A stretch of DNA of 64,000 nucleotides from a virus (lineage: Duplodnaviria > Heunggongvirae > Uroviricota > Caudoviricetes). The position numbers and the translations under genes are program-made. Where the stretch lies: positions 221,489 through 285,488 of the IMG/VR virus record IMGVR_UViG_3300028914_000001. One strand, 5' to 3'. The notes under the pieces are model-generated. The model was not told the origin of the DNA and made no database searches. It was given only the letters and a program-made list of their open reading frames with translations. This document shows, in pieces, positions 8,970 to 56,170 of the stretch (position 1 is the stretch's first letter; every line of letters begins with the position of its first letter).

Positions 8970-9002
8970 GGGCCCGCCATAACGATGTGGCGGGCTTTTT
9001 TA
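8970..9002 (+). terminator. Intrinsic terminator between convergent genes
   Basis: Hairpin GCCCGCCATA-ACGA-TGTGGCGGGC followed by a T-run. Confidence 0.85.
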
Positions 9003-9596
9003 TGCAAACCAGAGATTTATGGATGATATGTCCGTCGAGATGTCATTGAACATTTCGTGGATTTCATCGAGGGTGTATTTCTTGGATAGTTCGTACTTGT
9101 CGTCGAGGGTGCTCGGGTCCACATCCCTATATTCGCATAGATATCCATTCATGTTTTGGTCCGTCTTTTCATCCCATATTACGTACGAAAGCAACCCTTT
9201 GAAATTAGCCCTGACATCTATGCAGAAGTCGAAGTCCGATGATGTACAGTAAAGATAGGCTCTCGGGAAATTATCATCGCTGGGATTGTATTCTTTGGAC
9301 TGTCTTATCTCAAACCCACTTCCACACCATTCATCGTCCAGAAACTCTGCGAGTTGTTGAAGAATTTTTGAGTGTCCGCCATTGCTAGCGAACAGGGCTT
9401 CCGCCTTTTTTAGGGCTTCCTCGTCTACCGTGCTCTCTTCGCCATCTTCTAGCCCATCTTGCTCGTAAGCATCGTATTCTTTTTCGAGCTGTTCACCGCC
9501 CTCCGATTCGAGGCATATTTTTCGCAGCTGAATGATGGTTTCCTTTGCCGTCGGAGTGAGGTTTAACTTGCTGATTTCTGATTCGAATAGGTTCAT
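9000..9596 (-). CDS. Late acidic protein with shared N-terminal leader (MNLFESE...ICLE|S)
   Basis: Start moved to the ATG at 9596, 25 nt from TATAAACTA (9621-9629); the leader is paralogous to those at 20285 and 22217. Confidence 0.8.
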   Translation of the reverse strand: MNLFESEISKLNLTPTAKETIIQLRKICLESEGGEQLEKEYDAYEQDGLEDGEESTVDEEALKKAEALFASNGGHSKILQQLAEFLDDEWCGSGFEIRQSKEYNPSDDNFPRAYLYCTSSDFDFCIDVRANFKGLLSYVIWDEKTDQNMNGYLCEYRDVDPSTLDDKYELSKKYTLDEIHEMFNDISTDISSINLWFA

Positions 9597-9620
9597 ATTA
9601 GTGCCCAAGTAGTATATCCA

Positions 9621-9629
9621 TAGTTTATA
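9621..9629 (-). promoter_or_regulatory. Late promoter motif TATAAACTA
   Basis: One of 14 exact copies, each 21-42 nt upstream of a start codon; resembles the T4 late promoter TATAAATA. Confidence 0.85.
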
Positions 9630-9681
9630 AAGTAGATTTGTTTTGCTTAGGGCAGGGTTCTGCATCTATGCCACTTTAATT

Positions 9682-9695
9682 AAAATGTATTTTAA
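9682..9695 (+). promoter_or_regulatory. AAAATGTATTTTAA motif (candidate middle promoter)
   Basis: Upstream of the gp55-like gene; recurrent motif. Confidence 0.6.
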
Positions 9696-9722
9696 TTATG
9701 AGATTCAATCCATGAGTAGAAT

Positions 9723-10388
9723 ATGGAAAACGCAGTACCGACCAATGAGGAAGTAACGCTTGACTTTGAAATCCCAGAAAGCGGTTACTCCTGGACCCCT
9801 AAACAGTTGAAGGCGTTCGACGCTCAGATGAGGAGCGGGAAGATTGACAAGGATATTTTGACTAAGTTGCTTATCGAGTTGAAAGATGTCCGCAAGAAAT
9901 ATGGAAAGGAATATCCCGTTTCGGAGCCGCTTGGATATGTGTTTAATGTTGTTATCGACAAGAACCTTGGCAACCAGAAGTGGCGTGGCTACACCCCCGA
10001 CTGGAAGCAGGAAATGCGTGACCGTGCTGTTGAACTTCTTATCAAGCACAGTCACAACTTCGACCCGGTCAAGATGCAGACTACGAAGAATGTAGACCCG
10101 TATTATTACCTTGCCAAAATCACATTCTGTGCATTCATTCAGGCTCATAACAAGCTTGCTGCCCGAAGCAAGAAAATCAAGTTTGTCGCCCTGAATGAAG
10201 GCGCCATGAATAACTACTCGTCCATCGATGAATTTGCCATTGATGCCAACAAGAAGATTGACGAGGAAGAAAAACTGGAAAAGGAAAATGCAGCCAATGG
10301 TGTAACCACTGACGATATCGACATCTCGACAATGCAGACTGATGACCTGGTGAAGCAACTGAATGACGATGATTATACGAATGGGTAA
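9723..10388 (+). CDS. Late-transcription sigma factor (T4 gp55-like)
   Basis: 'WRGYTPDWKQEM...HNFDP...DPYYYLAKITFCAFIQ' matches the gp55 pattern GYT.xWKxEM...HNFD...NPxAY.T...FNAF.Q; acidic C-terminus. Confidence 0.9.
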   Translation: MENAVPTNEEVTLDFEIPESGYSWTPKQLKAFDAQMRSGKIDKDILTKLLIELKDVRKKYGKEYPVSEPLGYVFNVVIDKNLGNQKWRGYTPDWKQEMRDRAVELLIKHSHNFDPVKMQTTKNVDPYYYLAKITFCAFIQAHNKLAARSKKIKFVALNEGAMNNYSSIDEFAIDANKKIDEEEKLEKENAANGVTTDDIDISTMQTDDLVKQLNDDDYTNG

Positions 10389-10391
10389 AAT

Positions 10392-11480
10392 ATGAGACAT
10401 GAACTTTCAGTTGTCTTGGTCGTCAGGAATGGCGAATCAAAAATTCAGGAATGCTTGCAGCGTCTCGTAGGCCTTGCTGACGAGTTTGTTATCGTCGATA
10501 CTGGTTCTACGGACAAGACGCTTGATTTGGCAAGGAAGTTTCAGACTATGGTTCGCCAGCCTGTCATTATTGATGCAGTAGGCACACTCTTTCTTGATGA
10601 TGAAGGAAACTTCGACTTCGGCAAGGCTAAGAACTACGGGTTTTCGCTGGCGACCAAGGAATATGTGATGTGGGTCGACGTGAACGACATGCTTGATAAT
10701 GCCCGAGAAGTCCGTGCCAAGTTCGACAAGGCTAGTACGATGTACTCTACGTCAGACATTGTTATGTACACTAGGATAACCCGTTCGATGAAATTTCCTA
10801 GGGTCAGGATTGTGCGTAGGGAAACATCGAGGTTCATCAACCCGATTCATGAATACGTTATAGACACGGCGGAACCGAGGAAGGTGATTACCTTTAAGAA
10901 CGAGTTCATTAACTTCAAGAAACAGCGTGATGTCTCTCGAAACTTGAAGGCGTTGATTAAGCTGTGGAAGAAGGGTCATTCCCTCCGTACGGCATATTAC
11001 ATTGCAACCAGTTACAAGGACACGAAGAATCCCGAAATGGCTCGTCTGTGGTATGAAATCTGTCTAAATGAATTTCCTTACTGGGAATTTGACGAAACGA
11101 TTGCTGCTGCCGACTATGTAGTTGCTGATGCGTTGACGAAGGGCGAATTCGCTTTGGCCGATGAACTGACGATGGAAATGATAGAAAATATCCCGGAGCG
11201 TGCCGAAGGGTTCTACTACCGCTATATCTATAATGTCAAACTGAATAAGCTCGAACATGCCTTGAAATGCCTTGTCAAGCTCCGTGAGATTCCTCCTCCG
11301 GCAAGATGCCGCATTGGAATCAATACGAAGGCGTACAATGCAAAGGACAGGGAAACCCGTATCGAGGAAATCTGGCGTCAGGTCAAGTACAATCATCAGA
11401 CGATGAATACCGATGCACGAGTCTACGACAGTGTCCAACAGGCCATTGATGCGACTCAGTTCATGACAACGGTCTATTAG
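10392..11480 (+). CDS. GT2 glycosyltransferase with C-terminal TPR-like helices
   Basis: LSVVLVVRNGE, IVDTGSTDKT, DFGKAKN, WVDVND, IHE motifs. Confidence 0.88.
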   Translation: MRHELSVVLVVRNGESKIQECLQRLVGLADEFVIVDTGSTDKTLDLARKFQTMVRQPVIIDAVGTLFLDDEGNFDFGKAKNYGFSLATKEYVMWVDVNDMLDNAREVRAKFDKASTMYSTSDIVMYTRITRSMKFPRVRIVRRETSRFINPIHEYVIDTAEPRKVITFKNEFINFKKQRDVSRNLKALIKLWKKGHSLRTAYYIATSYKDTKNPEMARLWYEICLNEFPYWEFDETIAAADYVVADALTKGEFALADELTMEMIENIPERAEGFYYRYIYNVKLNKLEHALKCLVKLREIPPPARCRIGINTKAYNAKDRETRIEEIWRQVKYNHQTMNTDARVYDSVQQAIDATQFMTTVY

Positions 11481-11491
11481 TAAGATAGCAT

Positions 11492-11520
11492 TTGACATTT
11501 GCCGTCTTATTATGTATATT
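11492..11520 (+). promoter_or_regulatory. Sigma70-type promoter (probably giving a leaderless mRNA)
   Basis: TTGACA, 17 bp, TATATT; the ATG lies 7 nt after the -10 box. Confidence 0.8.
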
Positions 11521-11527
11521 TATCGGC

Positions 11528-12925
11528 ATGAGTCACACGAATCTAATTACAAAGAAACAGCTTAGCCCTGACCAGCGTAAGGGGTTGGCTGAAATGCTTG
11601 CATTCATGCACGACGATTCCCAGAGGGAAATGGTCCTTGCTGGTGCCGCTGGAACTGGCAAGACCTCCCTTCTTAATGTGTTTTTGAAGGAAGTCGTAAA
11701 AGATTTTAAATCGGACAAGAAGTTTAAGGTATACTGCACTGCTTATACTAATGAAGCCGTGCGTGTCCTTTCGCAGAGAAGTGGCAAGAATTACGACAAG
11801 ACTATCAGTGGGCTTCTCGGACTTAAACTTGAACAGAATGAAGACCGTGGCAAAGTTCTCGTAAGGGAAGGTAAATGTCATGCCTCCAAATATCGCCTCA
11901 TTGTTATCGACGAAGCGTCGATGATTAACGACGAATGTTACGAGATGATTCAGAGTATTCTTCGTGAGTTTCCTTTGATGAAGATACTCTATGTCGGTGA
12001 TGAAGCTCAGTTACCTCCTGTTAATTTGCAATCGTCGGTAGTATTTTTCCGGGTTCAACATATTTTCCGCTTGACTCAGGTTATGCGAGTTTCCGCAGAC
12101 AACCCTATCATCGGGCTTGTGACTCCTATCCGTGACCCGAGGAATATGCTTCGTGCGACAGATTGTTTTGAACATGTGGATAGAGTGAATGAACGTGGGG
12201 AAGGGGTTCGCTTCTACACGATGAAGAAGCCGTTCTTTGAAAACCTGTTTGCCGATTTCATGTCGGAAGAATACAAGGAAAATAAAAATTTCTGCCGCCT
12301 TCTGGCGTACACGAACAATGCAGTCGACAAGTCTAACTGCTTCATCCGGCGCCATATATTTGGTCCCGAGGTTGCAGAGTATACTGCGGGCGACGACTTG
12401 ATTGTAACGGAAGGATACAGCGTTCCCGTGGTCGGTGAGAAAAAAATGCAGGTTTATGCCAACGGTGAACGTTTGATGGTGCTTGAAGCTGACAAGTATG
12501 TTGAAGAGGGCACGAACATTGTCTGTTGGAGCCTGCTTGTGGATAACTATATGGCCCCGCCGAACAAGAGAGAGAAACGCCATATCAAAGTATTGTCATC
12601 GGAAGGTTATCCGACTTACATTGCGATTAAAAGAAATCTCATCGGAAAGGCAAGGACGCTGTGTGCCGAAGTGAACCCAATGACGGGCCTCCCTGTCCAT
12701 AACAGGCATGAGGTCTGGCAGGAGTTCTATGACTTCATCGAATCGTTCTGCTACGTCAATTACAGCTATGCAATGACCATCCACAAGGCTCAGGGTTCCA
12801 CAATCGACAATGTTTATGTTGTCGAAAAGGATATCAATATCTGCGACTGGGATGTTGTCCAGCGTAACAAGCTTAAATACACCGCTTTTACCCGTGCATC
12901 GAAGAATCTCCATATATTCAATTAG
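11528..12925 (+). CDS. dda: Dda/RecD-like SF1B DNA helicase
   Basis: GAAGTGKT, IVIDEASM, VGDEAQLPPV, YAMTIHKAQGST, YTAFTRA. Confidence 0.93.
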   Translation: MSHTNLITKKQLSPDQRKGLAEMLAFMHDDSQREMVLAGAAGTGKTSLLNVFLKEVVKDFKSDKKFKVYCTAYTNEAVRVLSQRSGKNYDKTISGLLGLKLEQNEDRGKVLVREGKCHASKYRLIVIDEASMINDECYEMIQSILREFPLMKILYVGDEAQLPPVNLQSSVVFFRVQHIFRLTQVMRVSADNPIIGLVTPIRDPRNMLRATDCFEHVDRVNERGEGVRFYTMKKPFFENLFADFMSEEYKENKNFCRLLAYTNNAVDKSNCFIRRHIFGPEVAEYTAGDDLIVTEGYSVPVVGEKKMQVYANGERLMVLEADKYVEEGTNIVCWSLLVDNYMAPPNKREKRHIKVLSSEGYPTYIAIKRNLIGKARTLCAEVNPMTGLPVHNRHEVWQEFYDFIESFCYVNYSYAMTIHKAQGSTIDNVYVVEKDINICDWDVVQRNKLKYTAFTRASKNLHIFN

Positions 12926-12929
12926 TCGA

Positions 12930-12943
12930 AAAATGTAGTTTAA
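12930..12943 (+). promoter_or_regulatory. AAAATGTAGTTTAA motif (candidate middle promoter)
   Basis: One-mismatch copy of the recurrent motif, upstream of 12968. Confidence 0.55.
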
Positions 12944-12967
12944 TTACAAGATTACACGACTATTTAT

Positions 12968-14721: not shown

Positions 14722-14722
14722 A

Positions 14723-15025
14723 ATGGCTGGAATCAAACCTGAACTTAGAGAAAAGATTATTGCGTCCTTCACGGACGAACAGAAGAAAGTGTATGAAAAT
14801 CTTGTCGGCGACAAGGCTCGCCTGTGCAACGAGTTTAAACTTTGCCGCCAGTTTTACGGTGACGTGATAGATGTTATCAGCAAGAAGGAATGCGGCCAGC
14901 AGGTAAGGATATTTCTTCGTAACGTAAGCGACTACTGGCAGCGCCGCATGACCATCATGGAAAGAAGTCTTGAAGTATTGTGCGGCCCCGATTTCGTTAA
15001 AGAGGTGAAGAATGCCAAGGATTAA
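14723..15025 (+). CDS. Hypothetical protein
   Basis: GAGG ribosome-binding site before the ATG at 14723 (MAGIKPEL); fills the gap in the operon. Confidence 0.7.
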   Translation: MAGIKPELREKIIASFTDEQKKVYENLVGDKARLCNEFKLCRQFYGDVIDVISKKECGQQVRIFLRNVSDYWQRRMTIMERSLEVLCGPDFVKEVKNAKD

Positions 15026-15455: not shown

Positions 15456-15457
15456 CC

Positions 15458-15694: not shown

Positions 15695-15724
15695 ATCGAG
15701 TATACCAATTTCAAAGGAGAAAAC

Positions 15725-16033: not shown

Positions 16034-16050
16034 GCATTGTCGCTTCCAGT

Positions 16051-16751: not shown

Positions 16752-16756
16752 ATGTG

Positions 16757-18506: not shown

Positions 18507-20285
18507 TTATTCAACCTCTGGCCAGTTAGTCGAATTGGCTACACGACTCATTCCATCGAAGTGTTCTTCGTAGGTGCCACGAGTGTCATCGTCCTGTTCC
18601 AGCTGGTCGAGAACGGTATCGAGCGGAGTCTTTCCAGTCTCTTCATTCGGCGTGGTCGCCCATTGCTTGAATGGTAGCGGGTTTTCATGCCGAGGTTTCT
18701 TTACGGTTCGTTCACGAGGCAACGGGGTGTCGTCACCCATCATCTCACGCCTGAAACTCTCAAATCTGTATTCTCTGTCTGACATCGTTTCGACGACTTC
18801 TACATACATATATTCATCGTACATTTTCTGCAGACGGGATAGCACCTTGTCTCGATTGAAAATAAGCCCGTTACGCCAGATACGGCCATCCACGAGCTGA
18901 ACACTGTTGCTTCCCAGATATCTACCAGTTTCATATTTCTTTGTTATGAAGGTAATCGCTTGGAGTACCTTCATATTCTTCTTGATGGCTTCATTTATCG
19001 CTGCTTCGGCTTTTTCTGGTTGGAGTTCGCATCCATAATAGTTCAGCAACTCAATGAAAGTATCAATATCTAAATTTTCTGTTTCAATGAATTTGCCCAA
19101 TGTCATATTTGCGTAATTCGGGTTGCAATTTTCAAGGAACTCTTTCACTTTCATCATAGTATGTCGGTACGATTGATGTTCGCAGGTTTCCTCGTCCAGA
19201 AGCGGCATAACGTCCACCTGATGCGAGCGTTCTATAATTTTAGCCATGCCGTCCTTGATATAACGAACGACTTCGTCGTTGTTCGTAAGCAACTCGGTCA
19301 ATTCCTTGGATACCAGTTCTTTCATATCATCGGGATTTGTGCCAGTTACGGTAGCTGTTAAGAAATCCATTAGTACCTTAGATTTTCCTTGTAGAAGAAC
19401 CTCAATGGCATCAGGTTCGTTTTTATGCTGCGGAGTATTATATACAGGAGATATATATACCGTAATGAGAGGCGGATGGAATGTAAGCTTAAACTCAAAG
19501 GTGCGTTTGAAGTTGCCGGTGAACCTATACCAATCTTCATTAAGGTAAAAGTTAAGCAAATGCAGTAGATGGCCGTAATCTTCCTCGACTTCATTTTTCA
19601 CGTCGAGTGCTTCCAAACACGGCTTGCTGCAGGATTCGTTAAGAGGTTCCTTTGATTTCGGGACTGGCTGGGCCTCCTTGATTTTCAAACCAAAATACTT
19701 TTGGAAATTCTGGCGGAACTTGTTAATTGTGGCTTTGTCAACTGGTTTACCACTTGTCGATTTGAAAAACGGGAGTATTTCTTCATCGAAGTTGATAGGT
19801 GAGTTTGACTTCGACCACTCTTCAACTCGCTTCAATATAGCCTTTCCATTTTCACCAAAATCCTTTATTAGGGCATTTTTTACTGTCTCTTTGCAGCCGT
19901 TCAGATATCCAGTAAACTCTTTCATCAGTTTCTTTGCGTCGATTTGATTCTCGTTAATGTTTTGCTGAGTGTTTTGTTGTGCGGGCTCTTGTTGCTGATT
20001 CGTATTTGGCTGAGGTGGTTGCTGTGCAGGCTGTTGTTGTGCATTTGCCTGAGCTGGTTGCTGAACAGGCTGCTGTTGTGCATTTGGCTGAGCTGGTTGC
20101 TGAACGGGTTGTTGTGGCTGCGTCTGAACAGGCTGTCGTTGTGCCTGTTTTTGACCCGGTTGCTGAACTGGTTGTTGAGCGGGTTGTGCCCCGGCTTCCA
20201 TACAAATATTCCTTAGGGATACGATTTCATCCACGATATATCCGGGAAGATTCAATTTTCGTATTTCTGATTCAAACAACGTCAT
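18507..20285 (-). CDS. Late protein with shared leader (MTLFESE...ICME|A), Q/P-rich linker and unknown domains
   Basis: Leader paralogy; QQPVQQP repeats; TATAAACTA at 20314-20322. Confidence 0.85.
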   Translation of the reverse strand: MTLFESEIRKLNLPGYIVDEIVSLRNICMEAGAQPAQQPVQQPGQKQAQRQPVQTQPQQPVQQPAQPNAQQQPVQQPAQANAQQQPAQQPPQPNTNQQQEPAQQNTQQNINENQIDAKKLMKEFTGYLNGCKETVKNALIKDFGENGKAILKRVEEWSKSNSPINFDEEILPFFKSTSGKPVDKATINKFRQNFQKYFGLKIKEAQPVPKSKEPLNESCSKPCLEALDVKNEVEEDYGHLLHLLNFYLNEDWYRFTGNFKRTFEFKLTFHPPLITVYISPVYNTPQHKNEPDAIEVLLQGKSKVLMDFLTATVTGTNPDDMKELVSKELTELLTNNDEVVRYIKDGMAKIIERSHQVDVMPLLDEETCEHQSYRHTMMKVKEFLENCNPNYANMTLGKFIETENLDIDTFIELLNYYGCELQPEKAEAAINEAIKKNMKVLQAITFITKKYETGRYLGSNSVQLVDGRIWRNGLIFNRDKVLSRLQKMYDEYMYVEVVETMSDREYRFESFRREMMGDDTPLPRERTVKKPRHENPLPFKQWATTPNEETGKTPLDTVLDQLEQDDDTRGTYEEHFDGMSRVANSTNWPEVE

Positions 20286-20313: not shown

Positions 20314-20322
20314 TAGTTTATA
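20314..20322 (-). promoter_or_regulatory. Late promoter motif TATAAACTA
   Basis: Exact copy upstream of 20285. Confidence 0.85.
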
Positions 20323-20393: not shown

Positions 20394-22217
20394 TTAGCTT
20401 TTGTTGCCTTTCTTCTGTCTGAATCGGAGAACAGCAACTTGTGCATTCATCTGAGCCTTTTCGTATGCGGTTTGCTCATTGTTTCCTTTCTTTATATATT
20501 CTGCCATAGCTTTCTTTTCGGCATCGTCATAAACCTTCTTCTCGTCTGGGGGAAGATTCATGTAAGATATTTTTCCTGACATGTACTGGGTCGAGCCTTG
20601 GGGTTGCTTCGGGTTCTGCTGTTGCTGTTGAACTTGCGGTTGTGCCTGCGGCTTCTGAGGTGTTGTTTGGTTTACAGGTTGTTCCGTACCTTTCTGCTGT
20701 GTTGGATTTGCTTTGTTTTGCTGGGCCACTTGTTGTGGCTGTGCGGCATTTTGAGTTTGATTATTGTTTCCCATGTTGTCAATCACCTTGTTGAGTGCGG
20801 CCTGACCTTCTTTGGCCCATTCGCCTTTTTGCATCTTGGCGAGAGCCTCCCTTGCTGCTTGGTCAGCCTTTTCAACTATCATGCTTTTGGGTGTCTTTTT
20901 ATCGACAGAGTATATTGTGATGTAATTCTGTTTGGTCTGGTCGAAGAACTTCTTTTCAGCGGCGTTTCGTGGTCCGTTGGTTGTATATGCAGTCTGTTGT
21001 CCACCCTTCTGTACATTAGTTCCTGTATTTACTTCCTTCTGTTTCTGTTGCATTGCGGCAATCTGATTTTGAGTTCCTTGCGGGTTCTGCCTCTGGAAAA
21101 CTGGGGCGATACCGTACTGCTTCCAGTTATTGTATTCTTGCTGGGAGATTATGTTGTTTTTAAGGAATTTCTGAGCCTGTGCTTCGTTAAACTTCTTGGA
21201 AGTTACATTTTGTGCCTGTTGCTGCGGCTGTGCTTGCTGTGGCTGTGCTCCTTGCTGTTGAGCTGGCTGTGCATTTGCGGGAACCTGAAGGTTACCGCTG
21301 AATACAGATGCTACCTGCATATTAGCCTTCTGCAATGCGGCGAGCGTCTGCTTTCCGATGAGGCCATCCTGAGATACACCTAGCTGAGCCTGTGCTGCTT
21401 GCACTTTTTTCTTTGCTTCGTTAAGGAGTAGGTTGAATGCTTCCTTGGTGTCATTGTCCATCTTGCCTGTTGCATTGATGTTTTCTGTTGCCTGAATTGC
21501 CTTGATTGTGTTAGGACCGAGTACGCCATCAGTAGCAAGTTTCAGGTTTGGATTCCTTGAATTTAGGAAATACTGCACGGTTGCGACATCTGCACCTTTC
21601 CTGAGCTGAGGTTGCTGTTGCTGCTGAGGTTGCTGTTGCTGAGGAGCCTGCGGTTGAGCTTGCTGTTGTGGTTGCTGTTGCGGTTGAGCTTGCTGTTGTC
21701 CGTTTGCCGCAGGTCCTGATGTGCGGACTTGGCTCGGTTCCCTTGTCATGCCCTTCGGAACTTGCGTCTGAGCTTGCTGTGCTGCTGGTTGTGCGGCAGG
21801 AGCACCTTGCTGCGGAAAGATATTATAGGACGACGGGTTGTTGAAATCCATTGCCTGCGGTTGATTACGCTGACGTGCCGGGTCTACAGATACTTGTTGC
21901 TGAACTTGCTGTTGTCCGTTTGCCGCAGGTCCTGATGTGCGGACTTGGCTTGGTGCCCTTGTTGTGCCCTTTGAAACTTGCGGCTGTCGGGTCTGCTGTT
22001 TTGCAGGTTGTGCAGCAGGTGCAGCGTTTTGTGGAAAGACATTATAAGACGACGGGTTGTTAAAATCCATCGCCTGCGGTTGATTCCGCTGACGAGCTGG
22101 GTCTTTTTCATCGCCTTCCGCTTCTAGGCATATATTGTTAATGTTCTTGATAGCGGTTTTCATCTCCGCTGGAATGTGCAGCGTATCAATAGACGCTTCA
22201 AAAAGAGATTTTAACAT
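20394..22217 (-). CDS. Gln-rich late protein with shared leader and peptidoglycan-binding (PG_binding_1-like) repeats
   Basis: 'LRKGADVATVQYFL...DGVLGPNTIKAIQ' and 'DGLIGKQTLAAL'; leader ends ICLE|A. Confidence 0.85.
   Translation of the reverse strand: MLKSLFEASIDTLHIPAEMKTAIKNINNICLEAEGDEKDPARQRNQPQAMDFNNPSSYNVFPQNAAPAAQPAKQQTRQPQVSKGTTRAPSQVRTSGPAANGQQQVQQQVSVDPARQRNQPQAMDFNNPSSYNIFPQQGAPAAQPAAQQAQTQVPKGMTREPSQVRTSGPAANGQQQAQPQQQPQQQAQPQAPQQQQPQQQQQPQLRKGADVATVQYFLNSRNPNLKLATDGVLGPNTIKAIQATENINATGKMDNDTKEAFNLLLNEAKKKVQAAQAQLGVSQDGLIGKQTLAALQKANMQVASVFSGNLQVPANAQPAQQQGAQPQQAQPQQQAQNVTSKKFNEAQAQKFLKNNIISQQEYNNWKQYGIAPVFQRQNPQGTQNQIAAMQQKQKEVNTGTNVQKGGQQTAYTTNGPRNAAEKKFFDQTKQNYITIYSVDKKTPKSMIVEKADQAAREALAKMQKGEWAKEGQAALNKVIDNMGNNNQTQNAAQPQQVAQQNKANPTQQKGTEQPVNQTTPQKPQAQPQVQQQQQNPKQPQGSTQYMSGKISYMNLPPDEKKVYDDAEKKAMAEYIKKGNNEQTAYEKAQMNAQVAVLRFRQKKGNKS
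21691..22100 (-). repeat. Intragenic tandem duplication (~220-bp unit)
   Basis: DPARQRNQPQAMDFNNPSSYN and PSQVRTSGPAANGQQQ each occur twice with near-identical DNA. Confidence 0.9.
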
Positions 22218-22245: not shown

Positions 22246-22254
22246 TAGTTTATA
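22246..22254 (-). promoter_or_regulatory. Late promoter motif TATAAACTA
   Basis: Exact copy upstream of 22217. Confidence 0.85.
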
Positions 22255-23911: not shown

Positions 23912-23954
23912 TAGTTTATAATGTCTGGATGCCGAAGCCTGAAATTATAAACTA
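23912..23954. promoter_or_regulatory. Divergent pair of late promoter motifs
   Basis: TAGTTTATA (23912-23920) and TATAAACTA (23946-23954). Confidence 0.85.
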
Positions 23955-23978: not shown

Positions 23979-25205
23979 ATGACCCCAGAAGAACAGTTCA
24001 GACAGGTAGTATCCACACTCAATATACCGAAAGTGCAACTAGAAGCGATTTGCGACCTACACTCCGCAGTCTACGAGGCTATGGATTTGAAAGGAATCTA
24101 TGACAAGTTGTCCCATCTGGACAATTACCCGAAGATTAGCAAGGCGATTAAGCTTGGTGGGGCTGCATTGATTGGAGGATGCCCGGTAGGTGGCGTGTGT
24201 AACACTGACTGGAACAAGGTGGCTGAGGGATTTGGCGGTGCCGACAAGCCCGTAGAGCAGTGTATAGACCAGCCGGAGAGTGCATACGACGAACAGGATA
24301 CGGTTTTCGACTATAAGGGCAACCCAGGTGTTGTCGATACCAATTTCACCGTAAAGACGGAGCCTAAGGCGGAAGAAACGCCTAAGGCGGAAGAAACGCC
24401 TGAGCCGAAAGAAACGCCTGAGCCTAACGAGGAAGTGAAGGAGGATGAGGATGATGACCTTGTCAGGGATACATTCTTGGTGAAGTTCCCGACACCATCT
24501 TCATCCGAATCGAGCGACGATGCTCTAAGGAAGTTCATGATGACGAATCTCTCCAGTGTATTCAAGGAAACCCATACACCTCAACAACAGGCTGCCCATA
24601 TCGAGCGCATCCTTCGTGCGGTCAAGAATGTGGCCAAGATTACGTCAAGTCGTGGAATCGGCGAAGCCGAGTTGCTCGCCATCATGTGTGTCGAGAGCAT
24701 GTACAACGACAAGCCGAAGACAACGAAATACAGGGGACTCGCCCAGCTGGGTGACGATGCAATGGACGATGCAAGGAAATATGCAAGAAGGTTCGGTCTG
24801 GATGCGTCAAAGATGCGTGACCCCGAGATTGTAGAGGATGCAGTGAACCTTGCCGCTGGCTACCTGTTGTACCTCATGTACCGTACCGACCGCAGCAACA
24901 AGGTGAAGCCTGACGGGAATGACGACAAGGAGATTGGTAACATGACCTACGCCATTGCCTGTTATAACGGAGGCATAGGCACGACCAAGTCAAAGTACCA
25001 TAACAATAAGGAACTTAGTGTTCCTATGCTTTACCGAATGGTTGAACGTAAAGAACTGACCCCCAACCAGGCAGTGAAAGTGAGGGGTTCGATGAAGGAG
25101 GCGTTAAGCTATCCGAAAAAGGTATTCAAGGTGCTTGATTACTTTAAGAGTATCGGATTGCCAACGCACTTTGGTTCGGGAAATGTATATTATCGAAAGA
25201 GGTAA
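23979..25205 (+). CDS. Lytic transglycosylase (SLT-like) with shared N-terminal leader
   Basis: 'LLAIMCVES', 'GLAQL', 'AAGYL', 'ACYNGG'; PKAEET linker repeats. Confidence 0.85.
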   Translation: MTPEEQFRQVVSTLNIPKVQLEAICDLHSAVYEAMDLKGIYDKLSHLDNYPKISKAIKLGGAALIGGCPVGGVCNTDWNKVAEGFGGADKPVEQCIDQPESAYDEQDTVFDYKGNPGVVDTNFTVKTEPKAEETPKAEETPEPKETPEPNEEVKEDEDDDLVRDTFLVKFPTPSSSESSDDALRKFMMTNLSSVFKETHTPQQQAAHIERILRAVKNVAKITSSRGIGEAELLAIMCVESMYNDKPKTTKYRGLAQLGDDAMDDARKYARRFGLDASKMRDPEIVEDAVNLAAGYLLYLMYRTDRSNKVKPDGNDDKEIGNMTYAIACYNGGIGTTKSKYHNNKELSVPMLYRMVERKELTPNQAVKVRGSMKEALSYPKKVFKVLDYFKSIGLPTHFGSGNVYYRKR

Positions 25206-32566: not shown

Positions 32567-33163
32567 TTAAAACATATGGTCTAGGTCAAAATCCTCTTCA
32601 CCCTCTGGCACGGGTTCCTCTGCAGGAGGTTCTTCGCTCGGTGGAGTAGGGTTTTCCGCAGGCTGTTCTGTCTGCTGGTCAGTAGTTTGGTCAGTCGGTG
32701 TGTCCGTTTGAGGTTCATCAGCAAACAGGTTATCCAGGTTAAAGTCTTCTTGCTCTTCCACCATAGGTTCAGCAGGAGTTTCTTCGGTTGGTTGTGGCGG
32801 CACTGAATTGTCTGCCGGGGGAGGGACCTGACCGAACAGGTCGGCTTGTTGAGCCGGGTCTGGTTCGACGGTTTCGACATTGTCGTCCTTATGGTCGAAT
32901 ATCTCGTCGCCTTCCTTCTTGTTGTTGTTTACACCAACCATGGAATGTACCTTGTCCATGAGGTCGTTCACACCCTTTGTGTTGGTCTGCGTGATTTCAG
33001 TCTTTTCGACCGGGGTTTCAGCGGCTTCGTTGTCCGTCTGGCCCATTTGCGGAGCCAAGTTTGATTCCATTAGACATTTGCGGTATATCTTTGATACGGA
33101 CTCGTACAATGCGGGTTCATGGGTTCTTAGATATCGAAGTTGTTGACTGAATGTTGCTGGCAT
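32567..33163 (-). CDS. Acidic, Pro-rich late protein with leader-like N-terminus (...RKCLME|S)
   Basis: Second gene of a late operon; low-complexity body with two EDF.LD..F motifs. Confidence 0.75.
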   Translation of the reverse strand: MPATFSQQLRYLRTHEPALYESVSKIYRKCLMESNLAPQMGQTDNEAAETPVEKTEITQTNTKGVNDLMDKVHSMVGVNNNKKEGDEIFDHKDDNVETVEPDPAQQADLFGQVPPPADNSVPPQPTEETPAEPMVEEQEDFNLDNLFADEPQTDTPTDQTTDQQTEQPAENPTPPSEEPPAEEPVPEGEEDFDLDHMF

Positions 33164-33167
33164 GATA

Positions 33168-33608
33168 TTATCCTACGATGTTGTCCATCTTGCCGTTAAG
33201 TGCGGCATTGACGGTATTCTGAACTTCGTCCAGTTCGCTGTCCAGCTTTTTCTGAGCATCGGCAGCGGCCTTCTGGTTTGCTTCCTTCTGTTTTTCAATT
33301 TCTTGGAAACGTGCGGCGAGAGACATCATTTTCTGTGAGTCGAGGTTATTCAGGTCACCTTGAACAGTCCTTGGTTCGACTTTATTCTGCTGCTGTTGCG
33401 GCTGTTGCTGTTGCTGATTAGCATTTGCAATTACCTGATTCTGCTGTTGTGTATTAGCCGTCGAAATAGTCTGCGGCTGCTGGATGGTAACGGCAGATTC
33501 GAACTGGGATTTGCCTTCGTTCCTTAACCATACGTCGTGCAGGGCGTTGATTGCAGTCTTGAACTTTTCGTCGTCGACGTATTCGTTGATGAACTTGATG
33601 AATGTCAT
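33168..33608 (-). CDS. Gln-rich coiled-coil late protein with leader-like N-terminus (MTFIKFINE...QFE|S)
   Basis: TATAAACTA at 33640-33648; the start resembles a T4 capsid-targeting sequence. Confidence 0.75.
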   Translation of the reverse strand: MTFIKFINEYVDDEKFKTAINALHDVWLRNEGKSQFESAVTIQQPQTISTANTQQQNQVIANANQQQQQPQQQQNKVEPRTVQGDLNNLDSQKMMSLAARFQEIEKQKEANQKAAADAQKKLDSELDEVQNTVNAALNGKMDNIVG

Positions 33609-33639: not shown

Positions 33640-33683
33640 TAGTTTATACCCTTGATGCTGATTGTGTACCAGATTATAAACTA
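33640..33683. promoter_or_regulatory. Divergent pair of late promoter motifs
   Basis: TAGTTTATA (33640-33648) and TATAAACTA (33675-33683). Confidence 0.85.
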
Positions 33684-37998: not shown

Positions 37999-39279
37999 AT
38001 GAAGACAAGTACCCCCGAAAGCGGTTTCATTGTCACGCTCAATGCTGAACAGAAGGAACTCTTCAAGATAGCACAGAGATATGGATGGAACCGTCAGAAA
38101 CTACTTGATAATGCACAGAAAGAAATCGACAAGGCTGGCCTCGGCATCTCCAAGGATACGTTGCGCAAGCGCTTTGACAGACTTTCCGAAAGATTCAACA
38201 CTTACAACGCTGCTCTGAACAAGGATGAGGAAGTCCCCCAATATCCGCAGGATAAGGAAGACCCAGTCGAAGACCGTAGGGAAAGCGAAAATACCTACTT
38301 AAAGAAGCAGCTGAACAGCCTCCGTGCCGAAAACAATAAGCTCAGGGTTCGTTCATATGTTGCAACAGAGTTGGCTGATGCATTGAAGACAGAAATTGCC
38401 GAAGTTGAATACGACAAGTTCTACATCAATGTCAAGAAGGCTAACGACGGTGAAAACCACCTTGTTCTTCCAATTTCGGATGCCCACTATGGAGAAGTTG
38501 TTCCAAGTGCCAGCACCCACGGAATTAACGAGTACAATCCAGACATTTCCAAGGCACGTCATATCAAACTCTTTGAAAAGGCTCTTGAAATGGCCCGTGA
38601 CAACAAGTGCGGAACCCTTGACATTCTCATGCTTGGTGACCTTTTCTCTGGCAACATCCATGACGAACTTAAAGAGACTAACGCTGGCCCGCTCACTAAG
38701 CTCCTTATTGACTACTTCAAATTCATTGTAGGTGCTTTCAAGAGCCTGAAGAATCAGTTCAAGAAGATGAATGTTTACTGCGTAGTTGGTAACCATTCCC
38801 GTACAAATCAGAAATGGCAGGCAAAGAATAAGGCGTACGATAACTACGAGTACATCCTGTACAAGTTCATCGAGGAAGCATTTGCCGAAGACAAGACCGT
38901 TTCCATCCATGTTTCCGAAGCCCCGTCTGACATTGCCGTAATCGGTGAACAGAAGTGGAAGATTGAACATGGCGACGCATATCGTGGCGGCGGTGCATTC
39001 TGCTCCCCGATTAGCACGGTCACCAGAGACAACTTCAAGGACTACGGAATGTTCATGAAGATGGGCATTGATTTCGATGTCGCCATCATGGGTCACTGGC
39101 ATCGTGGCGGTGAATGGTTCCTCAGCGGCAAGTGCATCCCTGTGTTCCTCAACCCGTCAATCGTCGGCCCTAACGAATACAGTATTGAAAAACTCCACGA
39201 GACTTTCCCTGCTTCCAGCTACATCTTCGTGACCAACGGCAAGGAAATCACATCTCAAACCCTCTACATGTTGCAATAG
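37999..39279 (+). CDS. Calcineurin-like metallophosphoesterase with N-terminal helical/coiled-coil region
   Basis: SDAHYG, LGD, VGNH, EHGD, GHWH motifs. Confidence 0.9.
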   Translation: MKTSTPESGFIVTLNAEQKELFKIAQRYGWNRQKLLDNAQKEIDKAGLGISKDTLRKRFDRLSERFNTYNAALNKDEEVPQYPQDKEDPVEDRRESENTYLKKQLNSLRAENNKLRVRSYVATELADALKTEIAEVEYDKFYINVKKANDGENHLVLPISDAHYGEVVPSASTHGINEYNPDISKARHIKLFEKALEMARDNKCGTLDILMLGDLFSGNIHDELKETNAGPLTKLLIDYFKFIVGAFKSLKNQFKKMNVYCVVGNHSRTNQKWQAKNKAYDNYEYILYKFIEEAFAEDKTVSIHVSEAPSDIAVIGEQKWKIEHGDAYRGGGAFCSPISTVTRDNFKDYGMFMKMGIDFDVAIMGHWHRGGEWFLSGKCIPVFLNPSIVGPNEYSIEKLHETFPASSYIFVTNGKEITSQTLYMLQ

Positions 39280-44099: not shown

Positions 44100-44141
44100 T
44101 AGTTTATACCCGGTCAAAAATAGCGGTGCCATTATAAACTA
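44100..44141. promoter_or_regulatory. Divergent pair of late promoter motifs
   Basis: TAGTTTATA (44100-44108) and TATAAACTA (44133-44141). Confidence 0.85.
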
Positions 44142-49138: not shown

Positions 49139-49151
49139 AAATGTATTTTAA
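49138..49151 (+). promoter_or_regulatory. AAAATGTATTTTAA motif (candidate middle promoter)
   Basis: Exact copy upstream of 49178. Confidence 0.6.
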
Positions 49152-49177
49152 TCATTGTAAAGTAGCTGTATGTACCT

Positions 49178-50685: not shown

Positions 50686-50686
50686 A

Positions 50687-51724: not shown

Positions 51725-51732
51725 AGGTACTC

Positions 51733-52458
51733 CTAGTATGAGTTACTGGTTTCTCCACCAGTAATTACACATATCGCAGACATAAACGAGTTTGGGTCTG
51801 GAAGGCGGATTATCCTCTTTATTTGGTAATTGAACGACATTGTGAACTTCACAGCAGCTATGCTGCCCGGAGTTACCTGCAACGCACTGATGCTTGTCGG
51901 GAAACAGCGGTAGTAACGGACAATCATGTGATGTTGGGCCCTGTCGTCACCGAAATGGAAATCGATGTGCGGGATGTACATCAGCCTGTTCCTGTACCTG
52001 TGGTCGTACCCGTAGACCCTGTGATTGTGGTCTAGTATAGGGAACGCATCCGTCTGTCCGCTCTGGATTGTTTCCATATAGCGGTGAAGTGCCCAGTAGT
52101 TCTCGTAGTAGTCATCACAATACATACTTATCGAAATCGACTCGTCGTATTCGTTGTCCTCCGTGGTTGGAATGTAAACGCTGAACTTGTAATGGTTTTC
52201 CTTGGCATATTTCAGAGAAAGGCCAGGAGCCGTAAAATTGTCGATGTTTGCGTTTACAGTCTCTGGCGGAGGCGCAGTATGCGCCTTTGTAACGTCATCT
52301 ACGTGATGTTTTCCGTCATAGTCTGGGTCGTAAGATACGGGAAGGTCGCCTATCCGACACCTGATAAAACCCTGGTGAACGGGCACCGGGTTTCGTACAA
52401 GGTTACGATGCAACTCCCTGACAGTTCGGGGAGTTAGTATAGGCTTCTTTTCCGTCAT
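51733..52458 (-). CDS. Tail tube terminator (gp3-like)
   Basis: 'FTAPGLSL', 'DDYYENY', 'CFPTSISAL', 'FTMSFNY'. Confidence 0.68.
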   Translation of the reverse strand: MTEKKPILTPRTVRELHRNLVRNPVPVHQGFIRCRIGDLPVSYDPDYDGKHHVDDVTKAHTAPPPETVNANIDNFTAPGLSLKYAKENHYKFSVYIPTTEDNEYDESISISMYCDDYYENYWALHRYMETIQSGQTDAFPILDHNHRVYGYDHRYRNRLMYIPHIDFHFGDDRAQHHMIVRYYRCFPTSISALQVTPGSIAAVKFTMSFNYQIKRIIRLPDPNSFMSAICVITGGETSNSY

Positions 52459-52461
52459 ATC

Positions 52462-53220
52462 TTACTTCTTCACCTGGACAGAGCCGACGAGGTTGGTCTT
52501 GGAGGTCTTCGGCGGTTCCTTCTTGTATTCAGGCTTGCCGAGTTCCACGAGCTTTTCCGTCTTCTTGCCGTCCATGTCCTTCTGGGCATACTTTGCGAAA
52601 GCCTTCGGGTTCGGATTCTTCATCGGCTTGTCACTCGTTACAACACCGAAGTCGTCACGTCCGCCGACCTTGAGAGTCGGGTTCTTCTGAGGCTTCACGA
52701 TGCCGACATTGTTCGGTAGATTGTGAGACCTGATTGCAGAGATGAGCGTCTTCATGTCGCTGATGGAGATTGCCTCACCAGCCTTGATTGGCTTGATGGT
52801 GCCGACGAGAGACTTGCCCTTGACAGTCGGAGCTCCCTTTACGGTGTAGGTCGTGTCAACTGTCGCATTGACTGGCTTGAACTTCGGAGTACCAGAAGAT
52901 GCTTCGAGCTGTGCCGTCTTCTTGACTTCGGGTTCCTTCTGTGCTTCGCTCGTAGTTTCCTTATGACCCTTGATGCGTTCAGCCTTCCATTCCTTGATGG
53001 TCTTGAGAGGCTTTACACAGCCAACCTTGTCATTCTGCATTACAAGGCCTTTCTTGGACGGCTTACGCATGGAATCGGTATCTGCCGTGGAAACGGAGGC
53101 AGCGTTCCAGAACGGGAACACCTCGTTCGCATCGAGCGTTTTAACTGGCTTCTTGGTCTCCAAGTGAGCCTTCACTTGGCCAAGAAGTTGTTTCTCAGTA
53201 GGGAGGTCAAACATATCCAT
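52462..53220 (-). CDS. Lys-rich basic late protein
   Basis: Late promoter upstream; recurring VGx(V/I)KP motifs. Confidence 0.75.
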   Translation of the reverse strand: MDMFDLPTEKQLLGQVKAHLETKKPVKTLDANEVFPFWNAASVSTADTDSMRKPSKKGLVMQNDKVGCVKPLKTIKEWKAERIKGHKETTSEAQKEPEVKKTAQLEASSGTPKFKPVNATVDTTYTVKGAPTVKGKSLVGTIKPIKAGEAISISDMKTLISAIRSHNLPNNVGIVKPQKNPTLKVGGRDDFGVVTSDKPMKNPNPKAFAKYAQKDMDGKKTEKLVELGKPEYKKEPPKTSKTNLVGSVQVKK

Positions 53221-53261
53221 AATTCATTCCTATATGGCAAAAGCCAACATTGTTATGCAAA

Positions 53262-53330
53262 TAGTTTATAAGATTGGCGGAATGAATTATCTGTGAATAT
53301 TGCATTTAAACCCCAAGACATTATAAACTA
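53262..53330. promoter_or_regulatory. Divergent pair of late promoter motifs
   Basis: TAGTTTATA (53262-53270) and TATAAACTA (53322-53330). Confidence 0.85.
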
Positions 53331-53352
53331 TTTCTGAAATAGCTGGTGCAAC

Positions 53353-54471
53353 GTGATGAAAAATATCTTCATAGAGTCTGTAAACAGCGTCATCGGATTG
53401 AGTGATGGCCAAAAGGGTGCAGTCGTGTCCTTGTATCGTACCTTGTTTGAGGATGGCGCTGGGTACAAGCCTGCGAATAAAGAAGAGGATAAGAAAGAAG
53501 ATAAGAAGGACGACAAGAAAGACGATAAGAAAGACGATAAGAAAGGCGGTGATAAAACGGATGATGCTCCAGCCGAATGGAAACGAAATCGCACACCGAC
53601 TAATATGACCCCGGTCAAGAAGCGTGATGTTAAATACATAGCGTTGCACTACACGGCTGGCAATTCGTCTTCGTCTGGCTCTGCGTGTAGAACGAAATTC
53701 CCTGCCAACTGTTCAGCCGACTTCATCATTGATGATAGCGAAGTATACCAGTACAATCCTGACTTGGACCACTACTTTACATGGGCTATCGGTGTAAGCG
53801 ACCCTCAGATTAAAGACAACTATGTAGCTGAGGCGAAAGCAAGGGGAATGAATGATGCGGCAAGTCTGTATGGAACTGCCAAGAATGCAAATACCATCTC
53901 AATCGAAATGTGCAGTAACTATAATGGCGAACGTCCTAAAAATGCATCACCGCTAGACCCTAACTTTTACTTGACCGAAGCTACCTTGGGGAATACGGCA
54001 AAGGTCGTTGCGTATTTGTTGAGTAAATATCCTGGCGCAAAGGTAATACGCCATTATGATGTCACTGGAAAACCTTGCCCCGGCCCGTGGTGCAGAGACG
54101 AGAAAGGAACGCAGCAATATCTTTCGTTTGTGCAACGCTGCAATGCTACGCCTGCTCCGAAAAGTGTTGAATATCAAGATGTCGAAGATTCATCGTTTGA
54201 CAAGTCGCAGCCCTCTTGGCCAGATTTCGGTCGTCTGTTTGCTCCAGATAAAACGAAAACGACGGCAGGCGATGCGGCCAACGCTACTACGGAAAATACA
54301 CTGAACGCCGTTATTAACTCAGTTAAAACCCCTGCCGCCAAGGTGCTTGCCGGGGTTATCTCGAAGATTAACCCTAATGCTTCCCCTAATGTTGTCGCCG
54401 AATTTGCCAACATGGTTGCTAGTAAGCCGGAGTTGTTGAAAAATGTACTCAAACTTGTATCAAATAAATAA
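53353..54471 (+). CDS. N-acetylmuramoyl-L-alanine amidase (Amidase_2) with shared leader and KKDD linker
   Basis: 'YIALHYTAG', 'SADFIID', 'ISIEMC', 'IRHYDVTGKPCPG'. Confidence 0.92.
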   Translation: MMKNIFIESVNSVIGLSDGQKGAVVSLYRTLFEDGAGYKPANKEEDKKEDKKDDKKDDKKDDKKGGDKTDDAPAEWKRNRTPTNMTPVKKRDVKYIALHYTAGNSSSSGSACRTKFPANCSADFIIDDSEVYQYNPDLDHYFTWAIGVSDPQIKDNYVAEAKARGMNDAASLYGTAKNANTISIEMCSNYNGERPKNASPLDPNFYLTEATLGNTAKVVAYLLSKYPGAKVIRHYDVTGKPCPGPWCRDEKGTQQYLSFVQRCNATPAPKSVEYQDVEDSSFDKSQPSWPDFGRLFAPDKTKTTAGDAANATTENTLNAVINSVKTPAAKVLAGVISKINPNASPNVVAEFANMVASKPELLKNVLKLVSNK

Positions 54472-56170
54472 TAAGTATGCTTTGATGGAAGCTTCGTTGA
54501 AGAGTATTTATGGAATTGATGCCGATACGGTCAATGCTATCATCACATTGCATCAGACGGTATATAAGCCTCAGTTTGAAAGTGTAGGCTCGGTAGCTCG
54601 AATATCCCTTGCCGCTGTACTTACTGGAACCGCCCTTTATTCGGGTGCTGCCGGAGTGATTGCCTCTGCCATCGCCGTCGTTAGCGCTATATCTGGCGGT
54701 ACTGCAATACCGTTCATTGGTGCTGCCGCTGCTGTTCTGTTTGCTGGATGGGCGGTGTACGATGCGGTCACTGATGTGTCCAAGGCAAATAAAGAAGCAA
54801 AGGAAATTATTCACGAAGGCAAAGCGATGGATGTGGCGGAAGCGGCTGTGAAAGAGCAGATGACGAGTAACCCATATGCAAAGTATGCGGTCGATGCGGC
54901 CAAGCGTACAGGACAAATTTTGAAGGAAACTGGCGGCAATCTGATGGATAAGCTTGATGCCGTTTCGAAGACGACAACTACCAAGAAAGCGGATTCAACC
55001 GATACGATAGATGATGACGAGTTTGCCAAAAAGTTTGGTTTCACGAAGGACCTCCAGATTGTCGATGAGGACAATGCACTTAACCATTCGATGCAATTCT
55101 TCTATTACATGAATGGTTTTAACGAGTATGGCAACAAGGTTATAGACAAAGAAGCTCATGATGAGTTCATGAAGCAGTTTGAGGAATATTGGGAAGAACA
55201 TAGTGATTTCCTTCCGTACTTGAACGAGAAGGAAGCAAGGTCCAAGATGTTTGTCGAGTTCGGTCGCAAGTATTACAAGGAAACCTTCATGCCGATGTTC
55301 AGGAAAAAACTTGCCGAAGCCAAGAAACTCAAAGACAAGGGAAAGAGCGTTGAGGAATTGGAAGCGGAAGGACGTAACGAGTTCGGGGATGTCGTTGATA
55401 ATGTAAAATACTACGCCACGATGGGATTCACCCCGGATGCAAAAATTACTGACATCAATAAATTCTCGAAGGCATTTACTGCAAAGACGGGTCTTGACCT
55501 GAGTTACAACCCGGTGTCACCTGAAGGTGAAGAACTGTTGGAACGAATGATGAAGGACAAGTCGGAAGAATATCTGAAATATCTTCCAGCACCAGTGTTC
55601 CTCATGGAAGAGAAAGACCAGAAACCGTTTATCGAGAAAGCCCGTGACCCGAAACGCCGTGGAGAATCGCAGGTTGGCCGTTACGGAAAGGATATGATAG
55701 CATCTAATGCCGCCGCAAACAAAGTTGCGACCGAGCAGAAGGCTGGTAATGGTGCAGTCGCTCGAAATGGTGCGGCGCAACCGCAACCGCAACAACAAAC
55801 GGATTCAAGTAACCAACAGCAGGATGATATCACTAATGCGCCTGATGTAGACAAGCAATCGGGCCCGTACCGTACTGTCGGAAAGGCTCAGTTGCTCAAA
55901 ATATACAACCTCTTGCCAGAGCGTTCAAAGCACCTGATGCGTCTTGGATACATAATGAATATCAATAACGGTAAGTTTTACCGAATGAGTGATGCTGATA
56001 GGCTGGTCATGCCGCAGATTGTTCATGAGGCTCGAAAGGAAGCTGAACGCCAATGGATTGAACAACGCAGACAGGTCAAGCTTAACCAGGGTCGGTTGAC
56101 CAGGGACGATATGACTAAGGAAGAAATTGAGGAATCGAACAGGAGGGCGGGATTCCCCTCGAATAGCTAA
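54443..56170 (+). CDS. Leader-bearing protein with a Gly/Ala-rich hydrophobic hairpin (candidate ejection/membrane protein)
   Basis: 'LMEASLKSIYGI...AIITLH...QFE|S' followed by a ~50-aa hydrophobic stretch; exact start uncertain. Confidence 0.72.
   Translation: MYSNLYQINNKYALMEASLKSIYGIDADTVNAIITLHQTVYKPQFESVGSVARISLAAVLTGTALYSGAAGVIASAIAVVSAISGGTAIPFIGAAAAVLFAGWAVYDAVTDVSKANKEAKEIIHEGKAMDVAEAAVKEQMTSNPYAKYAVDAAKRTGQILKETGGNLMDKLDAVSKTTTTKKADSTDTIDDDEFAKKFGFTKDLQIVDEDNALNHSMQFFYYMNGFNEYGNKVIDKEAHDEFMKQFEEYWEEHSDFLPYLNEKEARSKMFVEFGRKYYKETFMPMFRKKLAEAKKLKDKGKSVEELEAEGRNEFGDVVDNVKYYATMGFTPDAKITDINKFSKAFTAKTGLDLSYNPVSPEGEELLERMMKDKSEEYLKYLPAPVFLMEEKDQKPFIEKARDPKRRGESQVGRYGKDMIASNAAANKVATEQKAGNGAVARNGAAQPQPQQQTDSSNQQQDDITNAPDVDKQSGPYRTVGKAQLLKIYNLLPERSKHLMRLGYIMNINNGKFYRMSDADRLVMPQIVHEARKEAERQWIEQRRQVKLNQGRLTRDDMTKEEIEESNRRAGFPSNS

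Follow-up and report, generated by a model that had tools for sequence, protein, structure and literature searches.

A helix-turn-helix leader on unrelated, putatively late proteins of an uncultured T4-like megaphage: a candidate enlarged form of the T4-type capsid-targeting propeptide

In bacteriophage T4, the capsid-targeting sequence (CTS), MKTYQEFIAE, is cut once by the protease gp21 and, when attached to foreign proteins, can bring them into the head (PMC8442874, PMC3012670); T4 propeptides measure 10–20 residues (PMC5694885). The head proteases of T4, phiKZ, 201phi2-1 and SPN3US all cut after Glu (PMC5694885). In the last three phages, long N-terminal propeptides of head and ejection proteins are removed by gp175/gp245 (PMC5694885, PMC7411985, PMC10052503), and are mostly 80–160 residues long; giant-phage propeptides exceeding 100 residues have been proposed to act like the CTS (PMC5694885). 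The present analysis concerns a 64,000-nucleotide stretch of DNA (the window), corresponding to bases 221489–285488 of the 422,150-bp virus record IMGVR_UViG_3300028914_000001, which has direct terminal repeats. Several genes of this window begin with a common leader of about 30 residues, which is probably an enlarged, structured form of the T4-type capsid-targeting propeptide. The first-pass annotation of the window took the leader for a capsid-loading propeptide, a reading that is partly supported by the sequence comparisons described below.

A hidden Markov model (HMM) was built from only the six strong leaders of the window. Applied to the complete set of 3,615 stop-to-stop frames in the genome, it recovered its seeds and nine further frames at E<0.01, with nearly all matches beginning at Met. 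Iteration converged on 20 strong and 3–4 weak members in the 422-kb genome; 23 of them (the 20 strong and three weaker members, alignment A1), all of which begin at or near Met1, were used for the statistics. When each member was left out in turn, 21 of the 23 were recovered at E<0.01 and the remaining two at 0.03 and 0.9, and all 23 outranked the best reversed-sequence decoy (decoy E of 2.2 or worse). The family HMM also gave 23 matches in a complete 419-kb sister genome and 14–16 matches in each of three partial relatives. Among 1.84 billion representative proteins, 103 matched the profile at E≤1e-3, and 101 of these are true members (metagenome representatives, alignment A2) carrying the leader mostly at residues 1–34. 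Other N-terminal clusters found de novo in the genome proved to be ordinary protein families and not leaders.

The leader is 30–36 residues long (46 in one member), and members of the genome are 15–52% identical to each other. Their consensus is M-x(2-5)-l-F-x-E-s-v-x-k-L-G-L-s-x-x-Q-x-E-A-v-x-x-L-h-k-a-C-F-E, then A/S/G, and the leader closes with the motif [A/V/I]-C-[L/F/M]-E before a small residue. Glu occupies model position 33 in 90 of the 101 metagenome representatives; among these 90, P4 is A/V/I, P3 is Cys (71 of 90), P2 is L/F/M/Y and P1' is A/S/G (81 of 90), and where P3 is not Cys it is Leu or Ile and never Ala, Ser or Gly. Over the whole length of the alignment of 101 sequences, only M1, F7 and E33 are conserved in at least 90%. 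The segment, which had been described simply as helical, is predicted by AlphaFold2 to form a helix-turn-helix hairpin when modelled alone from the leader alignment (helix 3–12, turn, helix 18–32; mean predicted local distance difference test score, pLDDT, 94), and the same hairpin is present in the full-length model (pLDDT 71) of L013, a head-operon member described below. Foldseek searches against the PDB gave a best E of 2.4 for the leader, which is not significant, and of 0.21 for the full-length L013 model, which is not usable.

These properties recall the T4 CTS in that an N-terminal peptide common to unrelated proteins ends, as far as sequence can tell, in hydrophobic-x-Glu before a small residue. 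The start M-x-x-K-x-I-F-x-E-A loosely resembles MKTYQEFIAE↓A of T4 over ~10 residues (here and below, the arrow marks the border after Glu). Unlike the CTS of ~10 residues, however, the leader has 30–36 residues (46 in one member) and is a predicted two-helix hairpin rather than a short linear peptide, with Cys as the predominant P3 residue; by length and similarity it cannot be classed as a T4 CTS.

Six genes of the window carry the leader:

9000–9596, minus strand: gene A, 198 residues; leader at 9507–9596 (30 residues, ending ICLE↓S); acidic cargo with no family match.
18507–20285, minus strand: gene B, 592 residues; leader at 20196–20285 (ending ICME↓A); Gln/Pro-rich linker and a cargo without assigned function.
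20394–22217, minus strand: gene C, 607 residues; leader at 22122–22217 (ending ICLE↓A); cargo with PG_binding_1 and PG_binding_3 domains.
23979–25205, plus strand: gene D, 408 residues; leader at 23979–24077 (ending AVYE↓A); then a hydrophobic stretch, rich in Gly and conserved, which a Pro/Glu/Lys linker connects to an SLT transglycosylase domain.
53356–54471, plus strand: gene E, 371 residues; leader at 53356–53451 (ending TLFE↓D); then a Lys/Asp/Glu linker and an Amidase_2 (N-acetylmuramoyl-L-alanine amidase) domain.
54443–56170, plus strand: gene F, 575 residues; second gene of the operon led by gene E; leader at 54443–54580, the weakest member, with a KPQ insertion ahead of FE↓S; directly after the Glu, a hydrophobic Gly/Ala stretch of ~55 residues, probably a membrane hairpin.

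Eight open reading frames had been proposed to share the leader. The six listed here do so, 9596(-), 20285(-), 22217(-), 23979(+), 53356(+) and 54443(+), but the family HMM gives 33163(-) and 33608(-) E values of 110 and 67, and these two are discussed separately; scanning the whole window with this HMM revealed no member that had been overlooked. Gene E had been given a start at 53353, which is a GTG codon, and the ATG one codon later (53356) was taken instead, the leader itself being present.

That similarity ends at the Glu was borne out by comparison of the 23 mature parts, among which only those of the tandem paralogues L010 and L011 are alike, so that 22 unrelated cargo families are represented. 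The domains predicted earlier (SLT, Amidase_2 and PG_binding, together with the ~55-residue hydrophobic Gly/Ala stretch in the 54443 protein) were all found; WG_beta_rep and NUDIX domains also occur among the cargos, and 10 of the metagenome representatives have peptidoglycan-binding domains and three have SLT. A search of PHROGs added only lysis-type names, for cargos D and E, and neither the domain nor the PHROGs searches gave a match of any cargo to tail, baseplate or fibre families. Many cargos are small, acidic and without assigned function. The internal proteins of T4 are uniformly basic. The mature cargos have isoelectric points of 4.1–9.9 and are therefore not uniformly basic like those proteins. 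One metagenome cargo (A2) contains Fib_succ_major, a Pfam domain named after Fibrobacter succinogenes, which is a weak hint at the host lineage.

The setting of the leader in the head genes can be judged from the following loci (genome coordinates):

154046–154771, minus strand: prohead protease of the gp21/Peptidase_S77 type.
155068–155805: L013, a leader member with a putative late promoter word on one side and, on the other, the genes for small core protein, protease and scaffold candidate.
212229–212681, plus strand: leaderless NUDIX paralogue; the copy that carries the leader is ~2 kb away.
214895–215479, minus strand: NUDIX protein with the leader, directly downstream of the major capsid protein (MCP) gene.
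215589–217103, minus strand: MCP of the gp23 family.
217234–218937, minus strand: portal protein of the gp20 type.

The record is thus T4-like, the MCP, portal and protease being T4-type as judged by sequence. The protease matches PF03420 (49.4 bits, cut-off 27), phrog_207 'head maturation protease' (1.9e-30) and PDB entry 5JBL, the structure of T4 gp21 (3e-7). Its candidate catalytic His (ELNHP) and Ser (PGYSLRG) align with two Ala of 5JBL that are 55 residues apart; the catalytic residues of T4 gp21 are presumably His85 and Ser140, which have the same spacing, and 5JBL is accordingly taken to be an inactive mutant.

Downstream of L013 lie the genes for a 59-residue protein with two M-E↓S sites, for the protease and, at 153083–154036, for a 317-residue scaffold candidate with the sites LVE↓A, LFE↓A and AFE↓A. 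The L013 family comprises 73 homologues with an invariant SWIM-like C-x-C...C-x-H motif (C124, C126, C176 and H178), and has no Pfam or PHROG match and no PDB fold match. In T4-like megaphages, its members are conserved head-operon proteins, and their gene immediately precedes those for small core protein, protease and scaffold candidate. Glu33 is invariant in an alignment of 46 L013 orthologues (alignment A3), the N-peptides of which range from 14 to 33 residues; in other clades the peptide has 14–20 residues, its closing hydrophobic-x-Glu occupies this very column, and the start of the conserved body follows at once. Because these orthologues carry a 14–20-residue peptide with the same Glu, the 33-residue hairpin of L013 corresponds to a short T4-like propeptide with ~19 residues inserted in its middle. 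The boundary Glu survives this remodelling, and a processing site therefore fits better than a purely structural residue. The MCP propeptide contains comparable sites, T-L-[L/M]-E and L-x-E followed by S/A, which are kept in all relatives examined, and its TLLE lies within ~two residues of the E65↓A66 cut of T4 gp23, as estimated by ungapped extrapolation from an alignment to mature T4 gp23.

The word TATAAACTA occurs 53 times in the genome, against ~5 occurrences expected, and is found within 70 nt upstream of 15 of the 23 leader genes as compared with 33 of 544 other predicted genes (Fisher p=2.6e-12), usually with a gap of 24–30 nt to the ATG of the leader gene. It also stands ahead of the portal-MCP operon, the protease operon and tail-like genes. 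In T4 the late promoter word is TATAAATA, and because of the analogy TATAAACTA is read as a putative late promoter. The earlier assignment of this word to the leader genes holds: it lies directly ahead of 9596, 20285, 22217, 23979, 53356 and 33608, and 54443 and 33163 are second genes in operons. The copies concerned are:

9621–9629, minus strand: TATAAACTA, 24 nt ahead of the ATG of gene A.
20314–20322, minus strand: TATAAACTA, ahead of gene B.
22246–22254, minus strand: TATAAACTA, ahead of gene C.
23946–23954, plus strand: TATAAACTA, ahead of gene D, back to back with an opposite-strand copy at 23912–23920.
33640–33648: TATAAACTA, ahead of gene H (33608, minus strand; see below).
53322–53330, plus strand: TATAAACTA, ahead of gene E and the E-F operon, back to back with an opposite-strand copy at 53262–53270.

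Back-to-back pairs of TATAAACTA on opposite strands, 25–60 bp apart, recur in the window (23912–23954, 33640–33683, 44100–44141 and 53262–53330), a divergent layout of the putative late promoter at divergent operons.

The capsid-loading reading is thus supported by five features: the S77 protease, the end motif of Glu before a small residue, the similar sites in the MCP propeptide, the position of L013 in the protease operon and the promoter enrichment. As in T4, a gp21-family protease and a gp23-family capsid protein are encoded together with leader genes that are putatively late. Late in infection, ~23 proteins would be made with the 30–36-residue N-terminal hairpin, which would build the cargos into the head by binding a shared partner there during prohead assembly; this partner would be the scaffold core or else the shell, on its inner face. 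The gp21-type prohead protease would then cut at the end of helix 2, behind its near-invariant Glu ([A/V/I]-C-[L/F/M]-E, then A/S/G), and a second cut may fall after the Glu of helix 1 (l-F-x-E, then S/A). The hairpin fragments would exit the head, and the mature cargos would remain with the DNA and be delivered at the next infection; they would comprise transglycosylase, amidase, peptidoglycan-binding, membrane-hairpin and NUDIX hydrolase proteins and many acidic or unassigned ones.

Several points weigh against this reading. The phage is uncultured, and MCP identity to its nearest relatives in culture does not exceed 31%. Compared with the T4 CTS, the leader has three times the length and no significant similarity, and P3 is mostly Cys, unlike the Leu/Ile of T4 or the Ala/Ser/Gly of the phiKZ type. 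About 10% of members lack Glu at the exact column, although a Glu is found within 7 residues in all but one, and the role of the invariant Glu could be a structural one, that of a helix cap. A contractile-tailed phage would be unusual in carrying peptidoglycan hydrolases inside its head, since their usual place is the tail or baseplate. Finally, the leader is internal in one gene family, behind a 56-residue module and variable domains, and thus need not act as an N-terminal tag.

This last family is represented in the genome by one gene outside the window:

G000:C1:359681–361462, minus strand: internal-leader gene, the last 1002 bases of which are locus L019; its frame starts MQPLYEYVCH.

The frame encodes a conserved 56-residue module ending HIFKE↓S, a variable domain of ~190 residues, the linker GYKLLGESTNGNT, a full leader and a cargo of ~300 residues. 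The linker DNA that encodes Y-K-L is the TATAAACTA word itself, and the word TATAAACTG also precedes the long frame. About 20 metagenome representatives have the same module, linker and leader, and differ in the inserted domains (zinc ribbon, HExxH-like and P-loop). The arrangement corresponds either to a nested late gene or to a polyprotein cut at several Glu sites. Portability of the leader, as proposed by the first-pass annotation, is supported by the 22 unrelated cargo families, but the leader is not always N-terminal in its open frame.

Differences from T4 extend to the cargos, of which there are ~23 here and four in T4, and which include cell-wall enzymes and a membrane-hairpin protein in place of small basic DNA-bound proteins; the leader is also internal in one gene family. 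With the propeptides of phiKZ, 201phi2-1 and SPN3US, the leader shares a length exceeding that of T4, a proposed role in prohead targeting and a cut after Glu, which for the leader is a predicted one, and those propeptides can hold several sites; in paralogues of these phages, conserved N-termini can sit on diverged bodies, as is the case here. The propeptides of the phiKZ/SPN3US type, however, are specific to a protein or paralogue group, have the motif A/S/G-x-E and go with a scaffold that is not T4-type, whereas here one short module occurs on 22 cargo families. With P3 as Cys, Leu or Ile, a length of 30–46 residues and a T4-type MCP, portal and protease, the leader does not belong to that type.

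The helix-turn-helix coat-binding domain of P22 scaffolding protein and the cargo-loading peptides of encapsulins are C-terminal and uncleaved, and direct proteins inside HK97-fold shells. The leader resembles them as a small helical module or short peptide that is a candidate shell-loading signal, but unlike the P22 domain it is N-terminal and is attached to cargos other than scaffolding proteins, and its best fold match in the PDB is not significant (the Foldseek E of 2.4 given above). T7 gp16 is an ejection protein with a transglycosylase domain. P22 gp7, gp16 and gp20 are head-packaged ejection proteins of a podovirus (PMC8402733). Cargos D, E, C and F resemble such head-packaged, envelope-acting proteins with transglycosylase or membrane-active parts, but the podoviruses have no shared family of cleavable leaders, and a T4-like contractile-tailed virion has no obvious need for head-borne wall enzymes.

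Among the other explanations, it is unlikely that the hairpin docks proteins on another part of the virion, such as the baseplate, tail lumen or fibres, and that the Glu is structural and not cleaved. Late expression would suit any virion part, several cargos are peptidoglycan hydrolases or binders, which in myoviruses are usually tail proteins, and the Fib_succ_major domain of the metagenome cargo could be a binding domain. However, tail, baseplate and fibre families gave no match to any cargo, the protease/scaffold operon contains one member and the MCP gene is immediately followed by another, and the end motif agrees with the Glu sites in the propeptide of the MCP. The Glu is also kept by orthologues whose N-peptides differ greatly, which fits a cleavage site better than a docking surface.

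It is very unlikely that the proteins are packaged in the head and keep the hairpin, which would then anchor them permanently in an inner body or core or act there as an oligomerisation module. Such N-peptides are removed in known T4-type heads (PMC5694885, PMC8442874), the Glu with its small residue is near-invariant exactly at the border with unrelated cargo, and the same Glu column is invariant in orthologues with a 14–20-residue peptide, which is incapable of forming the hairpin. These observations have to be set against the stable predicted fold of the leader, which is not a short linear peptide, its occasional internal position, and the many paralogous proteins held in the inner bodies of giant phages (PMC5694885).

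That the leader is a tag for the infected cell, for instance a binding site on late proteins for a chaperone, regulator or localisation factor, would suit the many small, acidic cargos without assigned function, but is highly improbable, since the head-operon link, the protease-type end motif and the putative late promoters point to morphogenesis, and the leaderless NUDIX gene ~2 kb away on the opposite strand suggests a separate destination for the leader-bearing copy. A conserved nucleic-acid element (translation enhancer or recombination site) or recent gene conversion or copying, to which the common promoter word and its similar spacing to the ATG would have pointed, was tested and can be discarded, because pairwise identity at codon positions 1, 2 and 3 is 0.41, 0.56 and 0.31, that is, near random at the third and highest at the second, identical residues share a codon in only 38% of cases, and the leaders are no more than 15–52% identical, all of which indicates that selection acts on the protein.

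If the leader is an enlarged capsid-targeting propeptide, a single short HMM is enough to predict which proteins a clade of uncultured megaphages packages and probably injects: ~23 in each genome and, in metagenomes, more than 100 protein clusters. The majority of the cargos lack an assigned function and would therefore be candidates for roles in early take-over of the host, in penetration of the envelope or in counter-defence. Being structured and having a defined cut site, the leader could also serve as a packaging tag. The general idea of a CTS removed by a gp21-type protease is well known, and the advance is one of degree and detail rather than of principle; in a literature search, the coverage of which was incomplete, expanded leader families of this kind were not found described for uncultured T4-like phages.

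How the family arose is suggested by the NUDIX pair, whose two copies are 45% identical over the whole domain. Because one copy of the enzyme has the leader and the other does not, the leader is an add-on module, and the pair exemplifies a suggested route by which a targeting peptide of the T4 type may become a larger, folded module and be passed on through fusion to gene duplicates. In the relative G001, the leader-bearing NUDIX orthologue has a far more canonical leader, and its enzyme part is well conserved. More distant relatives (MCP 58–66% identical) gave no leader family with the leader HMM. One of them, G002 (260 kb, MCP 66% identical), had zero matches over the whole genome and no N-terminal paralogue family in an all-against-all comparison, and the short N-peptide of its L013 orthologue was found nowhere else in that genome; the spread of the leader over many genes is therefore specific to the ~420-kb clade. 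Among cultured phages, megablast and tblastn of large window genes gave no matches, tblastn of the MCP found no close phage (at most 31% identity) and tblastn of L013 gave two marginal matches only. It is conceivable, but rather doubtful as a whole, that the hairpin is a self-folding, transferable head-loading module of the ~420-kb T4-like clade, which arose when a short T4-type propeptide gained an insertion of ~19 residues, has since been acquired by more than 20 cargos, functions either N-terminally or within polyproteins cut at several Glu, and loads a set of proteins (wall hydrolases, the membrane hairpin, NUDIX and others) that are ejected and act at the envelope and in the cytoplasm. 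The head of a myovirus would then be the carrier of a large injected proteome that is predictable from sequence.

The two window proteins that fall outside the leader family are encoded in a short operon at 32567–33608 on the minus strand:

33168–33608, minus strand: gene H, 146 residues; helical N-peptide of its own, ending QFE↓S and conserved in orthologues; E=67.
32567–33163, minus strand: gene G, 198 residues; second gene of the operon led by gene H; N-peptide ending KCLME↓S, conserved in orthologues; E=110.

Besides these scores, which rule them out as members, orthologues in four related genomes keep distinct N-peptides, ending CLME↓S, LTE↓S, FE↓S or LE↓S. From these ends, both proteins may be protease substrates with a different type of propeptide.

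Two further observations were made in passing. Loci L093–L105 of G002 include three copies of a ~390-residue protein that starts MFQRAYxIRLYPSRQQ and resembles OrfB/TnpB of the IS200/IS605 family. In the window, genes for SbcC-like (5607–7838, plus strand) and SbcD-like (37999–39279, plus strand) exonucleases of the T4 gp46/gp47 type are not adjacent but ~30 kb apart.

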